From Malacoraja senta (lineage: Eukaryota), in NCBI GenBank assembly GCA_038087875.1, contig CM075990.1, positions 10,850,001 through 10,914,000 on the forward strand: a stretch of 64,000 nucleotides of DNA, written 5' to 3'. Below, in pieces: positions 12,766-63,542 of the stretch (its first letter is position 1; each line of letters opens with the position of its first letter). The notes beneath the pieces were generated by a model. That model did not search any database. It was not told the origin of the DNA and saw nothing but the letters and a program-made list of their open reading frames with translations. A program made the translations under genes and the position numbers.

Positions 12766-13466
12766 TTAGTTTAAATGTTACTTGTTTCTGCCATTTGTAA
12801 TGAAAGAAAAAAATAAAAGAGATACATTAAATAGTTAATATTCACAAGCTGGAAGTGACTTGCAAAATGTGTGTTAATAAATGCAACAATTATTTTTGCA
12901 CAAGTTCAGCATGCAGGAAATGAAAAAAAAAAATTTACATCAGAAAAATTGGAAAGGGCACATTTTTCTTGCAATCGTCTGTTTAAAGCACAAAATGAAA
13001 TAAGATAGTCAATTTCATTGAATTCAAGCAATATTGCAATGTAAACTATGCTTTATTTTCCCCTGATGGATTACTGGCATTTACATTTGGAGATGTCTGC
13101 CAGTCATGGGGTTTGGACATAACTGTAGTGAACCTCATTGCCGTGCAGCACTGGAGTGAAAAACAGATGTGTCTGGCCCATTAATGTGTGTGGCATTTAA
13201 AGTGGCCACATACCATCCATCGCAATTTGCTGTACCCAAACAAACCGCAACCATGTAACGCGCACTATCACACTTGATCAAAATTAGATGGAATCCCAGT
13301 TACATTACAGGTCCATAGCTGTTGTCAGATGTCACTTAAACCGTCTTGTCACCTCTTATTCAAGTTTCTACAGGAGTCTTGATATATTACAGGGGCAAGT
13401 ACTGACCCTTAAAATAGCTGATTAAGCACTGCAGATTGGCATAATCTGAAGCTTCAATTAAATGCT

Positions 13467-16374: not shown

Positions 16375-16933
16375 AGGGCCTGTCCTACTTGGCCATCATT
16401 CGCGCGCCATTTACGCGACCTGCTAGCGTGTGGGTAGCGCGGGACGGGCGCATGGAGTGGTGTGGAGGAGTGTGGAGTGGCGTGGAGGAGTGTGGATTTC
16501 GTCCTGCACTAAATCTTCGCGCGCCACCGGCCTGTCGCGAAACTGATGGCCAAAGTGGGACTGGCCCAAGACCCTGGCGCGGCGCAACGTCTCACCTCCA
16601 ACAGCAGCAGAAGCAGGCAAACGATCTGCGAGCTCGGCCTGGGGCTCACGGCCGTTGCGGATCCGGATCCGCCCCCACTCCTACTCCCAGAGCGGAGCCA
16701 AGACGATTGGAGATAGACACAAAATGCTGGAGTAACTCAGCGGGACCGCCAGCATCTCTGGAGAGAAGAATGGGTGACGTTTCGGGTCGAGACCCTTCAT
16801 CAGACTGAAGAAGAGTCTCGACCCGAAACGTCATTCATTCCTTCACTCCAGAGATGCTGCCTGTCCCGCTGAGTTACTTCAGCATTTTGTGTCTACCTTC
16901 GATTTAAGCCAGCATCTGCAGTTCTTTCCGACA
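16375..16933 (+). mobile_element. Harbinger-like MITE copy lacking its right end and carrying a PLE-derived palindrome
   Basis: Left end is TAA|AGGGCCTGTCCTACTT. Region 16511-16895 aligns closely with 62712-63100, including the palindrome centred on CAGACTG (16801-16807). Confidence 0.75.
16776..16803 (-). ncRNA. Minimal hammerhead ribozyme core (canonical CUGAUGA)
   Basis: Minus strand reads CTGATGA-A-GGGT-CTCG-ACCC-GAAA-C-GTC. All core nucleotides and helix II are intact, but only about 2 bp of helix I are visible. Confidence 0.65.
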
Positions 16934-17249
16934 CTGCATGGTTTGATTGTACTCATGGATAGTATGATTTGACTGGATCTCAGTGCACTTTACAATAATA
17001 AACCAATAACAATACTTTAAATATCAGAAAATTACAGGGAATTAACAAATACGGGACTAAATGGATGCATTTTTCAAGAAGACTGCACAATCATGTCCTG
17101 AATGGACTTGTTCTATGCTACAAAATTCCAGTCAGTCAATATCTAACAATGACTTCACACTACAGTGACAGCAATCGGGATGCAATTTTGCTGAGCATCC
17201 TGCAAGCTAAATTGAGTTAAGCAGGTCATCTCACTTTACGCCCATCCTA

Positions 17250-17606
17250 TCCAGGAAGCGAGCGGGTAAGATCATCTCTAACCCCTCTCACCCTGGCCAC
17301 AAACTCTTTGAATCACTTCCCTCTGGAAGGCGACTCCGGACTGTCAAAACTGCCACAGCCAGACATAAAAACAGCTTTTTTCCACGAGTAGTAGCTCTAC
17401 TCAATAACCAAAAATCTGTAGCCTCCTTTCACTCTGGTATTTTATTTAATTCACATGTTTAATCAATAATGTTTAATTATTAATGTTTAATGTTTAATGT
17501 GTCATTCTTAACTGTCACTGTATGTCATGTTGTCACTTGCGGGCAGAGCACCAAGGCAAATTCCTTGTATGTGAATACTTGGCCAATAAACGTATTCATT
17601 CAATTC
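17250..17606 (+). mobile_element. Rex1/Babar LINE 3' end
   Basis: KRAGKIISNPSHPGHKLFESLPSGRRLRTVKTATARHKNSFFPRVVALLNN, followed by a UTR ending aataaacgtattcattcaattc. Confidence 0.85.
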
Positions 17607-17607
17607 T

Positions 17608-19110
17608 CTTCTACAAGTCAAGCCCGAATGTGCAGGGAACAATCTGGTGAATTCCTTCTGTACTTTGTCCAACTTAATGACATCCTTCCTACAGTTGGGC
17701 AACCCAAACTGCAAGCAGTACTCCAAGTGTGGTCTCACCAACAATGTTGCACAGCTATCGAGTTACTGCAGGCTTTCATCCCAGACTACAACTATGCAAG
17801 CTTAATATTTAATCAAGGTTGAACCTACTTCAAACAATTGCCAAATTCCCTGTGTTAAATATGACTGAAACTCTTCGGGGAGGAAGCGGCCGTTCCAGAC
17901 ACTCCAAGCCGCTGAGAGTGTTCTCCCGACGCCGGAGCTCCATCATCCGGCGAGAGGGCCTGTAATGACTGGGGAGGCCTCAATAGGCCTGACCATGGGT
18001 GAACAGGAGGAAGAGGACTGGACTTTGTTGCCTTCCCTCACAGTGGGAACCATTGTGGGGGGATGTTTTTATGTTCAATGTTAAATTCTTTAATGTTGTG
18101 TTTTTATTTTATTGGTGTGCTGCAAATGGCAACTCAAATTTCACTACACCAATTGGTGTATGTGACAATAAATGTCCTTTGTCTTCGTCCTTTGTCCTTT
18201 GGCAACTTGTTCCAGTTTCAGACTTTCCTCGGAGTGAAAAAATTGCCCAAAGGTACCTCTTAAATCTTTCCTCTCACACGCTTTTTCAATAAACTCTCTC
18301 CAGTTTTAATATCCTCTATTCTGGATGAAAGGCTGAGTGTACACTTTATCCATGCTCCTCATAATTCTGTACGCTCAAGAAGGCCACTCCTTAGCTTCCT
18401 ACACTCCAAAGAAAAAAGTTCAATCCTGTCAATCCTTTCCTACAAGTCAAGCTCACAAATCCAGGGAACAACGTGGTGAATCACATTGGCACTCTTTCCA
18501 ATTTCATTATATCCTTCCTGTAGCTGGGTGACTCGAACTGCATGCAATACTCCAAGTGTGGTCTCACCAACGACTTTTACAGCTGCATCATTACGTCCTA
18601 ACTTTTGTTCTCAATATCCTTCCCAATGAAGGCAAGCATGCCAAATGCCTTCTTCACTAACCTGTCCATCTGGCTTTCAGGGGGCCATGCACCTATACTC
18701 CCAGATCTCTCCATTCCACAGCACTCTCCAGTGCTCTAACATTTACTGTGCAACTCCTGCCCTGGCTTGGCATATCAAAGTGCAAAACCTCATACTTGTC
18801 AGAGTTAAATTACTTTTTCCTCTTCCATGGTCCACCTGCCCAAATGATCTAGATCATGTTGTACACTTAGATAAGCTTCCTCGCTGTCATCTGCAAATTT
18901 CCGAGCAATGTCAGGTAATGTCAATCAAATTATTAATGCAGATAACAGTGGACCCAGCACCACTGGTTACAGCAGAACAGCCATCCTTCCTCCAAACCAA
19001 TTTTGAATCCAACAGGCTAGTACATCTTGGATTCCATGCGATCTAACCTCCCAAACTAGGCAACCTCACAGGACCTTGTTAAATGCCTTGCTATAGTCTA
19101 TATAGACAAT
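17608..19110 (-). mobile_element. Fragmented CR1 RT/3' region
   Basis: VRPHLEYCLQFG.P..RKDVIKLDKVQKEFTR (17620-17745), a second VRPHLEYC at about 18540-18570, and IVYIDYSKAFNKV at about 19070-19110. Interrupted by 17876-18200. Confidence 0.85.
17876..18200 (+). mobile_element. Non-autonomous retroposon with a GC-rich body and LINE-type tail
   Basis: GC-rich 5' part, then aaatttcactacaccaattggtgtatgtgacaataaa and a (gtccttt)n tail. Nested in CR1. Confidence 0.55.
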
Positions 19111-19229
19111 GGTCAAATTCCTCTTTCTTTTTCCAGTAATAAATCTCCTGTCATGTTGATTCATTGTGGCCTGAAATTTATGTTCATGTATAACGACCTG
19201 AAAAAAGTTACTGTAGTCAATTACTGAGA

Positions 19230-19360
19230 TAGAGTCATAGTCAAAGTGCGATAGATTGTGGAAAAAGGCTCTGGCCCAATTTGCCCACACTGGCCAACAT
19301 TTCCCAGCTACACTAGTCTCACCTGCCTGCATTTGGCCCATATCCTTCCAAATCTGTCCT
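19230..19360 (-). mobile_element. CR1 3' tail
   Basis: Reverse complement matches the tail of the CR1 at 53640-53764 (tgtagctggga..tgttggc..gtgtggg). Confidence 0.75.
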
Positions 19361-21469
19361 TAACTACAGTGATGTCCTGATCATTTCAGATCTAGTGCTA
19401 CGAATTTTAAGTGCTGTAACCAGACTATCCATGAAACTTCTGAATTTAACTGTAAATTAGTTGTCAGGATCTTAAACTGAAATTAAAAGAGGGATAAAAA
19501 TGAAAAATGAAAATTTCATCTTAACAATATTGTTGTAAAATTTCATGCAAAATAATAGAAGCTTTTGTTATATTAGAAGTACAATATTTTGATTTGCATG
19601 GTTTTGCTTTAGATGCTTGACAACAGGCTCTGCATTGAGGTTGCAACAAACATCACCTGCCGACGTCTTGTACTCGTGCAACATCTAAGATATTATTGAA
19701 AAAAAATACTGAAAACAGTCAGAAGGTTAAGGAGCATCTCTGGAAAGAGTTATTGTTTCAAGTCTAAGTACGTTTATCAGAACGTTCTTCGTTTGGATGA
19801 AGGGTCTTTCACCCAAACTATCTTCATTTCTCTTTCCATAGACGTTGCCTGCCAAGTGTTCCAGGCATTAATATTTTTGACATACAGTTGGCTTTGAAGG
19901 ACTCGAGAGAAATGATATTATAGATGTTTAAAAGTAAGCACACATTGCAACATGAAGAACTTTACACAACAGAAGCAGAATAGAGCCTCCGATCAATGAA
20001 GGTGCCCGACCATGACCCCTGCTCAAACGTAACAAATACAAAGGAAGATCCAAGTTGCTCATTTATTAACAAAGTACTGGAAACCGCTGTCAACAAAAAA
20101 GTGATTTGGAAGAGTGGCAGAAATCATTAAAGATGTGATTTTTTTCCCTTTCTTACCAAAGGCCATCACTAATGTTCTAAATCGATGTCAACATTAAGAA
20201 AATAAATGGATATTCACTTTTTTTTTCTCCAACCAGTCAGACAAATAGCCCTCTAAAGTTTGTAGTAACTTTGCTTATAACCACTCCTTTTTTTGTCGCT
20301 GCTTTTCAGTTTATAGCAAAGATTTATGTTGATTTTTATGTCAAAATAATTGTCACTCGTTTGTGTGAATGATTTGATAAATCCTTTCATTTTACTTTTA
20401 GTAAGCTACATTAAGCAGGCTTTATTTAATTTGATGAAAAATATCTTGGGGCTATCGGCTACTAATAACAGCCATTTAATGAAAACAGCTAAAGTGCACA
20501 GAAAAATATAAAACAGGTATGAACAACATTCAAGAATTTTGAAAGTCACGAATCACTGAATGACCTGATCCAGCTTCACACAGAAAGACTGCAAACAGAA
20601 AGAAATGAACCCATTAAAAGCCATAAATAGCTTAATTATGCCATGATGCAATAAGAGACTTCAAAGGCAAACCTGACCCTCCTGTGCCAAAGAATTTAAA
20701 AACTGAACACAAAGCACATTTTCATCAACAGCATGGATACTCAATTTGTCTACTGCAAACTGGTGGGCCTTTACCACCTTATTATGACATTATTATTTTG
20801 GCCTCTCACTCAACAGACATAGAATCTAGTGAACAATATAACTGTAATATAGCTTCATGTGAACAAAGAATTTCATTGCACTCTGGTGTATGTGACCATA
20901 ACTAATCTGAAATCTGGCGAAAGTATAAAATAAAATATCCTATAGAAGTAAAACATTTTCTGTAGAGCATTTTGTAAAGCATTGGATGACATATAAATGC
21001 AAACTATTTTAAGCAAAATATGATGCTTCTGAAATGGAAATTGAAATTTATTATTGCATTACGTTTTCAGGATTGCACAAATTTAGGAATGTGGGGCAGA
21101 CAATTCATCGATAACTGCATATCATGAAAAACATATAAAAACCCATCAAACAATGATATAAAAATCCAATCTCTCTGGGACCTCTCTGCTTTATTTGGTG
21201 GCTGATTTATTAATTAGGCTTATTGCATTTTTGTGCATTTAGTCAAGTAGAAGATGCAGACATCAATGGACCCATTATCAGTCATTCTGTAAATCTGACG
21301 TAAAAACAAAATCAACATTTATCCAAGTTGTGTTTTGCCTAATTTAAAAAAGTTGTGTTAATTTCCAACATCCTTAGCCAAAGTTTGTGGGTGTCTACAT
21401 AACTGCCTAATTACAAAATAAATTCAAACTGGGAGTATATTGGCAAGAACCCCCAAGTACCTTGTCACT

Positions 21470-24844: not shown

Positions 24845-24979
24845 TATGAAGTAGGGTCTCGACCCAAAACGTCACCCATTCCTTCTATCCAGAGATGCTG
24901 CCTGTCCCGCCGCTGAGTTACTCCAGCATTTTGTGTCCATATTCGGTATAAACCAGCATCTGCAGTTCCTTCCTACACA
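24845..24979 (+). mobile_element. PLE-terminus repeat with degenerate hammerhead
   Basis: tgaagtagggtctcgacccaaaacgtcacccattcc...ccagcatctgcagttccttcctacaca. Confidence 0.88.
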
Positions 24980-26464: not shown

Positions 26465-26723
26465 TGATGCCAAGTTAATTTCCTCTGCCCTCACATGAAC
26501 CATATCCATCCATTCCATTCATATCCATGTCCCAATCTAAAAGCCTCTTGAATGCCACTATCATATCTGCTTCCACCTTCTCTCGGAGGGTTATGAACCT
26601 TTATAGTACAGGCACGCACGCAGGGACAGACAACTATGGAGATGGAGTTGCTGAATATACTTAAGGTGGAGATTAACAAGTATTTGAATTACAGACGAGT
26701 GAAGAGAACAAGTGGGAAAGTGT

Positions 26724-26907
26724 AGGAAGGAACTGTAGATGCTGGTTTAAACCGATGATATACACAGAGGGACAGGTAGCATCTCTGCATAGAAGGAAAG
26801 GGTGACATTTTGGGTTGAATCTGATGGGTCTTGACCCGAATCGTCACCTATTCCTTCTATCCAGAGATGCTGCCTGTCCCGCTGAGTTACTCCAGCATTT
26901 TGTGTCT
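26724..26907. mobile_element. Fold-back PLE-terminus unit with an approximately 14-bp TSD
   Basis: aagtgggaaagtgt (26710-26723) and aaatgggagagtgt (26908-26921) flank inverted arms. Confidence 0.75.
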
Positions 26908-27049
26908 AAATGGGAGAGTGTGTCAAGACAAAGATCTATTTAGCCACAATACTATTTATTGGTGGAGATGACTCAAGGACCAATTGTCCTCATGTTACTT
27001 TTCTTCTTTGTGTTCTCACAAGGACTAATCACAGCTTAATGCAATAGAC

Positions 27050-30347: not shown

Positions 30348-30496
30348 CAAGGTAGACAAAAATGCTGGAGAAACTCAGCGGGTGAGGCAGCATCTATGGA
30401 GCTTCTTTCGTTCCATAGATGCTGCCTCACCCGCTGAGTTTCTCCAGCATTTTTGTCTACCTTCGATTTTACAGCATCTGCAGTTCCTTCTTAAAC
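30348..30496. mobile_element. Fold-back PLE-terminus unit with a perfect 52-bp inverted repeat
   Basis: Arms 30349-30400 and 30412-30463 are exact reverse complements. TSD is agaggtttgatg (30336-30347) / agatgtttgatg (30497-30508). Confidence 0.9.
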
Positions 30497-61266: not shown

Positions 61267-62538
61267 TATTACTGCCTTAATCACAACAATTATCAACTTG
61301 TTCCGAACTGCACTCTTTCCGCTGGCAAATGTTCTGACATACCTGTCAGCATGAGTGAAGGGTTTCTTTTTGTTTGTAAGCATCATGATCAAAGCACACT
61401 TCCATAATTACATGGCATTGGCTTCAAATTCTCTATGCATGATGTAGACCTTGTATATTTACACGATACCCTAGTTATCGGAATACCTGTGACAATGCCA
61501 AATATTCCACTCATACAGAAAGGTTTCACAAAGATTGTGCATCAACTTATCGCAACAAAACCAACAGCTTCAGATTCAGTAATTTCTAGATATTCAAGTC
61601 CAGTCATTATAGATGTTGTATATTTGCATGACAATTAGTACCACATTAGCCCTGCTGCTTTAAAAAAAATATCCCAAATCATTTATATTGAAGGCTCAAT
61701 AATATTAAAATCGTTTTAACAAATCTGGAACTATGGAGAATACTTTTTCAAAAAAATCTCTGTAGATGCCCAGTATTGTTTAAATTTTGAAATGTTCACG
61801 TACAAAGAATAGCTTCAAGGGGTCATGATATGGTGCATAATCAAGTAACACAAATAATTTATTGGACATAATAGGTCAAATGTATTTATTGTTTTGAATG
61901 ACACAGCGATTAAATATAGCAACATATTCCAGAAATAGTCTGCAGGGAATGCAGCCTCAATAAAAGTTCTGGCCAACAATGCAAGTGATAGTGTGAGTGG
62001 TGAAAGATAACCTGTCAGGTGCTGTTCTAAGAAAACATTCTCTGAACAACACCAATATTGGGAAAAACATGGTCAAGATCTGAGAACTTTTGTGTCAATG
62101 GCATGTGTTATCATATGTGTAGAAGCTACACTAAAGAAAACAAATTAAGTTGTAGTAAAAAATATTCCGCTACAATAAAGAATCAACAATTAAGAGTCGA
62201 GTCTTTGCAAAGGGACCAGAACAACAAAATTCTTACATGCTGCAGCTTTATAGGAACATTAAATGCAACACAACAAATAAAGAGACAATAAATTATCAGT
62301 TTTACTAAGTAAACCATACCATAATAGTGCAAGTGGACGTTTGTGTTAAAATGTATTCTGTGTGTTCCGTTGCTTTTTATTTGTATGACTGACTTGGCAA
62401 ATGAAATTCCTCATATGTTGCAAAACATACTTGGCTAATAAAGTATTGTATTGCATTGTAATGTATTGTACATAGTTCAACAAGTCCATTGGAGTTCGGT
62501 GCTATGGTAGGGTTGTGGAGGGTAGTTCAAGAGCCTTA

Positions 62539-63238
62539 AGGCCTTGTCCCACTTACATGATCTTGGCACGCAAATTACGCGACCTCGTCGTCGCGTTGAG
62601 GCACACGGGCATCGTGTGGCTGCACGGGCTGGGCCGGTCCCACTGAGAAGCACGGAGGGGTATGGAGTTGTGCGCGGTATCGCGTGGGGCTCCAGGATTT
62701 TGTACTGAACAAAATCTTCGCGCGCCACCGGCCTGTCGCGTAACTGACGGCCAAAGTGGGACAGGCCCAAGATCCTGGCGCGACGCAACGTCTCACCTCC
62801 AACAGCAGCAGAATCAGGCAAACGATCGCCGAACTCGGCCTGGGGCTCACAGCCATTGCGGATCCGGATCCGCCCCCACTCCTACTCCCAGAGCGGGGGC
62901 CAAGAAAATTGAAGATAGACACAAAAATGCAGAAGTAACTCAGTGGGACCAGCAGCATCTCTGGAGAGAAGGAATGGATGACGTTTCGGGTCAAGACCCT
63001 TCTTTCAGACTGAAGAAGAGTCTCGACCCCAAACATCACCCATTGCTTCTCTCCAGAGATGCTGCCGGTCCCGCTGAGTTACTCCTGCATTTTGTGTCCA
63101 TCTTCAAATGACGTCACGCGCTCCAGACGGCTGTGCGGACGCATGATGACGCGCGAGACTCTCGCGGGATCGTCGAGCCTTAACGCGTCGACGAGGTCAC
63201 GTAATTAGCGTGCCAAAGACACGTAAGTGGGACGGGCT
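62539..63238. mobile_element. Complete 700-bp non-autonomous PIF/Harbinger-like MITE with an internal PLE-derived palindrome
   Basis: Imperfect TIRs of about 65 bp (aggccttgtcccacttacatgatcttggcacgcaaattacgcgacctcgtcg.. / ..cgacgaggtcacgtaattagcgtgccaaagacacgtaagtgggacgggct). TTA TSD at 62536-62538 and 63239-63241. Hairpin of about 200 bp at 62909-63107. Confidence 0.85.
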
Positions 63239-63446
63239 TTATGGTTATTTACAATACCATACATTAATTAAAAATTGGAAACCTGCAAACTGAAAGTATT
63301 AGTTTTCTTTTCGTGACAATCGATCTGTTCTTTCACTCATAATTTGTAGAAGCAAGAAAAGTTTAATATGGGGCACGGAATGTACAAATTGATTGATAAA
63401 GCCACAAAGCAAAAATTAAAAAAGCCACACAGTACACAGCACAAAG

Positions 63447-63542
63447 CAGTCTGAAGAAGGGTTTCAGCCCGAAACGTTGCCCATTTCCTTCGGTCCATAG
63501 ATGCTGCTGCACCCGCTGAGTTTCTCCAGCATGTTTGTGTAC
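63447..63542 (+). mobile_element. PLE-terminus repeat with a near-intact hammerhead core
   Basis: cagtCTGAAGAagggtttcagcccGAAACGTT, flanked by cacagca. Confidence 0.85.

Follow-up and report, generated by a model that had tools for sequence, protein, structure and literature searches.

A PIF/Harbinger MITE Family Carrying a Damaged Head-to-Head Pair of Penelope Termini as Probable Passive Cargo

The 700-bp element described here, located in a window of 64 kb (the whole stretch of DNA analyzed), is a non-autonomous, MITE-like PIF/Harbinger element. Non-autonomous PIF/Harbinger derivatives of this kind are known as Tourist-like MITEs. The palindrome in its interior is, as judged from its match to termini of Penelope elements (PLEs), an ordinary head-to-head PLE insertion. 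It is quite probable that this damaged PLE pair was captured once and that the MITE has since been copied in trans with the pair as passive cargo.

Structure and Copy Number of the Element

The features of the element are listed in Table 1. The first-pass annotation of this DNA had described a 700-bp element with a TTA TSD, inverted ends, internal TIR-end motifs and a palindrome of about 200 bp centered on CAGACTG, all of which were recovered in this study. In a folding computation, the hairpin of the palindrome had a free energy of -143.2 kcal/mol with a z of -19.9, and 0 of 200 shuffles were equal or better. The element is non-coding, as its ends are non-coding subterminal parts of autonomous elements and it has no coding capacity. 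Among the loci compared, the spacer had no match beyond the copies of subfamilies A and B, and an Rfam scan of the 64-kb window gave no match at gathering score.

Table 1. Coordinates of the features of the flagged element and of a second copy in the window.
Feature	Position	Strand	Remarks
Flagged element, 700 bp	62539-63238		flanked by TTA at 62536-38 and 63239-41
Left TSD TTA	62536..62538	unstranded	
Left TIR and subterminal region from autonomous-type Harbinger, Myb/MADF-ORF-side end	62539..62733	+	matches L158, L157
Inverted repeats of the ends	62546-62602 / 63177-63233		57 nt, 86%
Subterminal motif (internal, TIR-like)	62631-62644	+	within left Harbinger-derived region 62539..62733
Internal copy of B-type right terminus, ~40 bp	62728..62768	+	joins left region at short shared sequence
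Internal TIR-like motif	62755-62768		
GC-rich spacer, 62% GC	62769..62905	+	fixed in subfamilies A and B
Left PLE-terminus arm	62906..63009	-	minimal hammerhead remnant 63008-62980, 1-nt insertion in CUGANGA box
Outer arms of palindrome	62909-62926 / 63090-63107		18 nt each
Main arms of palindrome	62924-63004 / 63013-63093		81 nt, 89% identity
Center of palindrome, CAGACTG	63006-63012		
Right PLE-terminus arm	63009..63107	+	minimal hammerhead remnant 63010-63037; changes 63019, 63030, 63035; tail removed
TTCAA 5-mer, joint of palindrome and right segment	63103..63107	+	flanks both ends of ~200 bp in family C, absent here
Right subterminal segment from autonomous-type Harbinger, transposase-side end	63108..63176	+	L104, L142, L143, L148
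A-type right TIR (left ~65 bp in inverted orientation)	63177..63238	+	flagged copy lacks 2 bases near tip
Right TSD TTA	63239..63241	unstranded	
Second copy, subfamily B, right end missing: left part, spacer and palindrome, continuing as free-type PLE arm with tail	16375..16933	+	

All 40 scored candidates from the own genome, the window copy included, were near full-length copies with identities of 88–100%, a sample biased by its being the best 40 of 7,168 candidates. A 23-nt spacer marker matched 1,438 exact sites in the genome, and its control matched 0. The first 30 of these sites by position (28 distinct) all entered the palindrome, 27 of them contiguously and 3 with interruption by later insertions; 28 belonged to the dominant subfamily A and 2 to subfamily B. 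A query was also taken from the copy at 16375 so as to reach no more than ~10 nt into the palindrome. It recovered 30 loci, of which 28 possessed palindrome and right segment, the exceptions being the window copy and the truncated L035. Amplification of the composite as a unit, which the first-pass annotation had also proposed, is thus borne out by both sets of loci. Because the spacer marker was retained exactly in 36 of the 60 best-matching copies, the family is estimated at roughly 2,400 copies or more, assembly duplicates included. The identity of copies to the family majority was ~95–96%.

Both TIRs were found in 25 of the 28 distinct position-ordered loci, and 17 of these 25 had identical TWA on both sides. 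The corresponding numbers were 18 of 30 for the subfamily A query, 13 of 25 for the subfamily B query, 10 of 13 in family C and 6 of 11 in family D; the automatic TSD call mis-set a few ends, that of the window copy among them. Several copies, including L011, L018, L025, L029, L033, L036 and L048, lacked an identical duplication and were flanked by TTA at one end and by TAA at the opposite end. Moreover, three of 30 subfamily A copies (L019, L022, and L024) were inserted at a TTA belonging to a PLE terminus, which is expected because PLE termini are very abundant, TWA-bearing targets.

The joint between palindrome and right segment was bridged by contigs of runs that carry six different organism labels (A, C, D, E, F, and H; 8 runs examined), one of which is possibly the source species, and the joint therefore occurs beyond this genome. 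The left joint was bridged by contigs of one such run. Contigs from presumed RNA runs also covered the element; strand, level and cleavage are not readable from such contigs.

Kinship with Autonomous Harbinger Elements

The PIF/Harbinger superfamily is defined by a TWA TSD and a two-gene layout (PMC13668399). The Harbinger class and TWA TSD initially assigned to the element agree with its ends, which match elements that bear PF13359 and MADF ORFs and have the same TIR core. Among 534 DDE_Tnp_4 candidates in the genome 150 were scored, many of them with this TIR core, and autonomous-type Harbingers related to the MITE in their TIRs were found (L143, L101, and the left ends of L157 and L158). 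The first ~197–198 nt of the MITE correspond to the left ends of L158 (85.8% identity over 197 nt) and L157 (83.7% over 203 nt). The right segment matched the transposase-side end of L104, L142, L143, and L148, of which L143 has 4.36 kb between its TIRs, a 436-aa PF13359 ORF and a right end matching the MITE. The related L101 contains a PF13359 ORF and a MADF ORF, and L101 was the only element in which a MADF match was seen (22.5 bits, cut-off 22). In the autonomous Harbingers, the TIR core is the same as in the MITE and the subterminal motif is present in repeats. Because ends and TSD type are common to the MITE and the transposase-bearing Harbingers, the MITE is likely mobilized in trans by a cognate Harbinger transposase.

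L091–L094, L100, and L101 represent multi-copy Harbinger families with open transposase ORFs of 427–432 aa. The copies of the L082 group were 98–99% identical, so such families with open ORFs are probably recent. L091–L094, with a 478-aa frame, make up the PF13359 family with the largest number of copies; it was rejected as the closest parent of the MITE, as its TIRs have diverged. The Harbinger terminus is common to many MITE families: L095, L103, L105, L145, and L159 are short elements (200–400 bp) with the same TIR core and other interiors. The palindrome-free sister MITEs (L219–L247) comprise deletion derivatives of ~430–500 bp as well as forms of 600–700 bp that keep the transposase start. 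A free 230-bp mini-element was rejected as a common precursor, as only one of 10 sites (L195) ends at the internal terminus.

Free Penelope Termini and Head-to-Head Pairs

The PLE origin proposed earlier for the palindrome was upheld, given that the same type of terminus adjoins a GIY-YIG ORF and that free head-to-head pairs are routine. In L216, a related terminus lies ~140 nt downstream of an ORF with a GIY-YIG match (E 3e-4, 21.4 bits, just below the curated cut-off of 22.6), and L217 likewise has one beside a PLE RT/GIY-YIG ORF. The PLE copy of L216 belongs to a related PLE subfamily with 84% identity. The motif of the free termini agrees with the available description of minimal hammerhead ribozymes (min-HHRs), for which pairs on opposite strands, 100–700 bp apart, have already been noted (PMC4209133). 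The exact free-type palindrome center was found at 482 genome sites, and 14 of the first 15 were outside the MITE and represented several PLE subfamilies. Free head-to-head pairs usually had one short arm and one arm with a tail, and insertions of EN+ PLEs are described as possessing an adjacent inverted, 5'-truncated copy and a tail (PMC8557442). The fixed turning point, which lies in a 4+4-nt micro-palindrome of the terminus, could prime fold-back.

The arms of the MITE palindrome were ~90% identical to free PLE termini. Together with the strength of the hairpin and its presence in >1,000 dispersed copies, this similarity is compatible with a role of the hairpin as a source of dsRNA for small RNAs against the abundant PLE family, either incidentally or as a selected silencer. 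Free head-to-head pairs, however, would supply the same hairpin without the MITE, and selection for host silencing is unnecessary to explain the spread of the MITE. We therefore regard such a role as highly improbable.

The window contained about a dozen free PLE termini, two of them head-to-head. The head-to-head pairs are at 26719–26908 and 30349–30490, and their centers are degraded or deleted. Free single termini of several subfamilies are at 63447–63540, 59675, 55904, 44217, 38343, and 34816, and further ones are at 24847, 15562, 13473, 12657, and 6570. Three termini in the window (34821, 55908, and 63451) had an intact min-HHR box set. Elsewhere, the free head-to-head insertion L211 had an apparent target duplication of ~15 bp, consistent with retrotransposition.

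State of the Hammerhead Cores

The first-pass annotation assigned to each arm a core with CUGA..GA, helix II and GAAAC-type parts. Both cores of the flagged copy were found to be broken. Its + arm has G12 changed to C (63030), G16.2 changed to A (63035), a mismatch in helix II (63019) and an unpaired N2.1, and its - arm has one extra base within the CUGANGA box. Tolerated core variants of the hammerhead motif are reportedly listed by Lünse et al. 2017.

For subfamilies A and B, 87 distinct loci were considered, of which 11 were dropped (truncated, interrupted, or with no findable center) and 76 were scored. A core was counted as intact if it had the CUGANGA and GAAA boxes, helix II, a palindromic 15.2–16.2 and the N1.1–N2.1 pair. 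Both cores were intact in none of the 76 copies. In subfamily A, the left CUGANGA was kept in 0 of 50 copies and the right core was fully intact in 0 of 50 (0 of 100 arms). In subfamily B, the left (-) core was intact in 10 of 26 copies and the right (+) core in 0 of 26. The position-ordered subset had no intact arm in 21 copies. The right (+) core was intact in 0 of 27 copies of families C and D, and the left (-) core in 5 of 15 copies of family C and 4 of 12 of family D; the majority sequences of B, C and D thus retain the - core. By the same test, 19 of 115 free termini passed. The known features of min-HHRs, i.e., CUGANGA, an extra base before helix II, G10.1–C11.1, GAAA and a palindromic 15.2–16.2 (PMC4209133), are shared by the MITE arms as a plan, but subfamily A has them disrupted on both sides of the palindrome, and B and C have them disrupted in the + arm.

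Dispersal of a functional ribozyme cassette, active from either strand and cleaving read-through RNA, does not fit these counts. Both arms do descend from min-HHR motifs, and the left core of subfamily B was intact in 10 of its copies, a fraction that is about what neutral decay would leave (0.95^20 = 0.36). No copy, however, had both cores, the dominant subfamily A had none, and the + core was damaged in family C and deleted in family D. Furthermore, min-HHRs show no activity as single motifs and require a second same-sense copy (PMC4209133), and even as tandems their activity is low (PMC4209133, PMC6765202). A second same-sense core for dimer folding is absent from the palindrome; its head-to-head layout provides one core per strand, located after its own antisense, which supports the earlier suggestion that each core is folded with its own antisense. 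According to the folding computation, opening of the core region would cost 24–46 kcal/mol in the palindrome versus 8–13 in free termini. The pairing probability of helix II was near 0 in the MITE and in the free control terminus alike and did not discriminate between them. A functional cassette is extremely improbable. Any contribution of working ribozymes by the MITE is also doubted because damage to the + core goes back to the stage of the longer relative, and the MITE adds little to the intact cores because one intact 30-nt variant of the free core alone occurs at 13,027 genome sites (a minority of which will be B-type arms). The cores of the MITE are likely inert, with the effect of the 1-nt insertion being a predicted one, and the palindrome likely represents passive cargo that was captured once.

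Origin and Amplification of the Composite

The composite-type right marker had 857 exact sites versus 114 for the autonomous-type marker of the sisters, a 7.5-fold excess in counts that are not age-matched. The first 30 of the 114 sister sites consisted of 23 simple deletion derivatives without the palindrome, 6 that retain the transposase start and 1 composite. Twenty of the 857 sites were checked, one chosen for its odd position and 19 from the top of the list after exclusion of those already in the spacer-marker set. The palindrome was immediately upstream in 19 of the 20, and L260 had ~180 bp in between. L260 is a 1.09-kb element with TIRs and an AT-richer middle filler (41% and 36% GC versus 59–60% at the ends), and this filler holds the palindrome, whose left arm is short and whose right arm has a tail. 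A search with the L260 filler gave 30 loci (L269–L298), of which 15 are family C (~1.09 kb), 12 are family D (~620 bp) and 3 are truncated. C and D are thus additional non-autonomous Harbinger families that contain this tailed PLE insertion. The coordinates for family C are L260:1-930 and L268:2444-3530 (G000:C1:43723443-43724530).

Family C has an inverted short PLE copy and, on one side, a tail that is absent in subfamilies A and B. The A/B joint matches a deletion between two TTCAA 5-mers of family C, and the A/B left arm is longer than that of C and mirrors the right arm up to the TTCAA joint. In family D, the + core is deleted outright, and the internal ~40-bp copy of the B-type right terminus is present as in the flagged element. 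A T-to-G change that family C has in its left arm alone is present twice in A/B, once per arm, and in family D it is on the right; because of this distribution, the arms were evidently copied onto each other in master copies. Homogenization of the arms inside individual copies after insertion was not supported, as 54 shared minority states were counted versus 57.8 ± 4.4 in 2,000 shuffles; exchange between arms is confined to comparisons of lineages and to individual rearranged copies. Two rearranged copies are L044, in which the palindrome center is inverted, and L248 (G000:C1:124772800-124774200), in which the palindrome is flanked left and right by the right segment as the result of a fold-back duplication.

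It is thus likely that a 1.09-kb relative gave rise to the 700-bp form through arm copying and deletion at microhomologies, with the proposed order C to A/B/D read from the anatomy of the families. In this path, a Harbinger deletion derivative would have incorporated host DNA in which an ordinary inverted PLE insertion was already present, giving rise to family C. Template switches at short homologies would then have eliminated the tail together with 170 bp (from TTCAA to TTCAA), the left arm would have been rebuilt from the right arm in the A/B lineage, and the left filler would have been replaced by the internal TIR copy and the spacer, which would yield A/B at ~690 bp. Deletion of the + core would be the alternative outcome and would yield family D at ~620 bp. 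The hammerhead cores would have decayed along this path, and in any read-through RNA they would be locked in a hairpin of ~95 bp. A search for an exact joint without the palindrome, in which at most 30 nt separate the end of the spacer from the right segment, gave 0 hits, because the palindrome would have entered the lineage before the spacer.

Three observations do not sit easily with passive cargo. The - core survives in the B, C and D majority sequences, the palindrome has been kept, and has become more symmetrical, in the most successful lineages, and the marker excess is not explained by passive cargo alone; age or master-copy luck could account for the last of these. It is worth weighing whether the PLE arms were kept as near copies of the Harbinger terminal and subterminal motif, where they would add candidate binding sites for the Myb-like/transposase complex and raise mobility. 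The arm motif equals the subterminal motif, which is itself repeated in the autonomous elements, in 14 of 15 nt. Its G form was exact in 91 of 128 MITE arms (most of the others being CpG-decay forms) versus 0 of 27 free termini, and the G is the change described above, left in C, on both sides in A/B and right in D. The G form, however, goes back to a single substitution transferred from arm to arm, and further variants that look neutral are likewise shared by both arms. Moreover, the match was noticed post hoc, family D lacks the left motif and was still amplified, and the marker counts on which the excess depends are not age-matched. We consider a gain of mobility by this route unlikely. Co-option of the PLE terminus as a Harbinger cis-element, with the motif improved, the sisters out-amplified ~7.5-fold and the ribozyme cores discarded, is on the strength of the marker excess and the G-form match likewise given only a small probability.

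Comparison with Known Systems

The first-pass annotation knew of no description of such a chimera. The general kind, i.e., a non-autonomous class II element that amplifies a captured Penelope fragment, is already known from Anolis carolinensis, in which group A of hobo-N (hAT) has a filler with a 520-bp Penelope insertion and has been amplified (PMC3014272). Similar to the elements in this study, hobo-N diversified by partial deletion of its Penelope piece and by recombination between elements. Different from hobo-N, the carrier here is a PIF/Harbinger element of 0.6–1.1 kb instead of 1.3–3.4 kb, and the cargo is a head-to-head pair of termini with hammerhead remnants, while the available text of the Anolis account mentions no ribozymes (PMC3014272). 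A Harbinger carrying a PLE hammerhead pair was absent from the searched literature, subscription journals and Dfam/Repbase aside, and no class II carrier appears in the available portions of PMC11167929 or of the retrozyme preprint (bioRxiv 10.64898/2026.07.22.740005).

Similar to other PIF/Harbinger MITEs, the family has TIRs, a 3-bp TWA TSD, no coding sequence and a high copy number, and its ends are common to two-gene (DDE and MADF) elements of the same genome (PMC13668399). Different from plain Harbinger MITEs, its middle was captured rather than left as a plain deletion joint, and contains an internal TIR copy as well as the palindrome of 200 bp; sisters that are plain deletions coexist with it. 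The back-to-back termini resemble those of EN+ PLE insertions, especially in family C with its one short and one tailed arm. In contrast to EN+ PLE insertions, A/B have lost the tail, both arms stop at the same point, and the unit is now a cut-and-paste element, whose TSD is TWA and not that of a retrotransposition event (PMC8557442). Non-LTR retrozymes are tandem units with at least two complete hammerheads on the same strand (bioRxiv 10.64898/2026.07.22.740005). Identity with them was rejected, as the copies here are dispersed, bounded by TIRs and have damaged cores on opposite strands.

The family provides a traceable example of a non-autonomous DNA transposon that takes up a retroelement stump and is then remodeled by microhomology deletions and inter-arm copying, and the stages C, D, A, and B, the plain sisters and the autonomous parents coexist in one genome. 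Repeat annotation and hammerhead censuses are affected, since thousands of MITE arms would count as PLE ribozymes. The family would be of greater importance only if the PLE arms boost transposition.

Second Copy in the Window

The first-pass annotation had described a second copy at 16375 with the same internal layout. Left part, spacer and palindrome are indeed shared, and over these 411 nt the copy is 89.8% identical to the flagged one, but it belongs to subfamily B and lacks a right end. At 2 mismatches, no right TIR was found in 16901–21000, from which the right segment is also absent. Instead, the copy runs into a free-type PLE tail, to about 16933, and it probably arose by recombination with a free PLE terminus. 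Its - strand core is intact at 16803.
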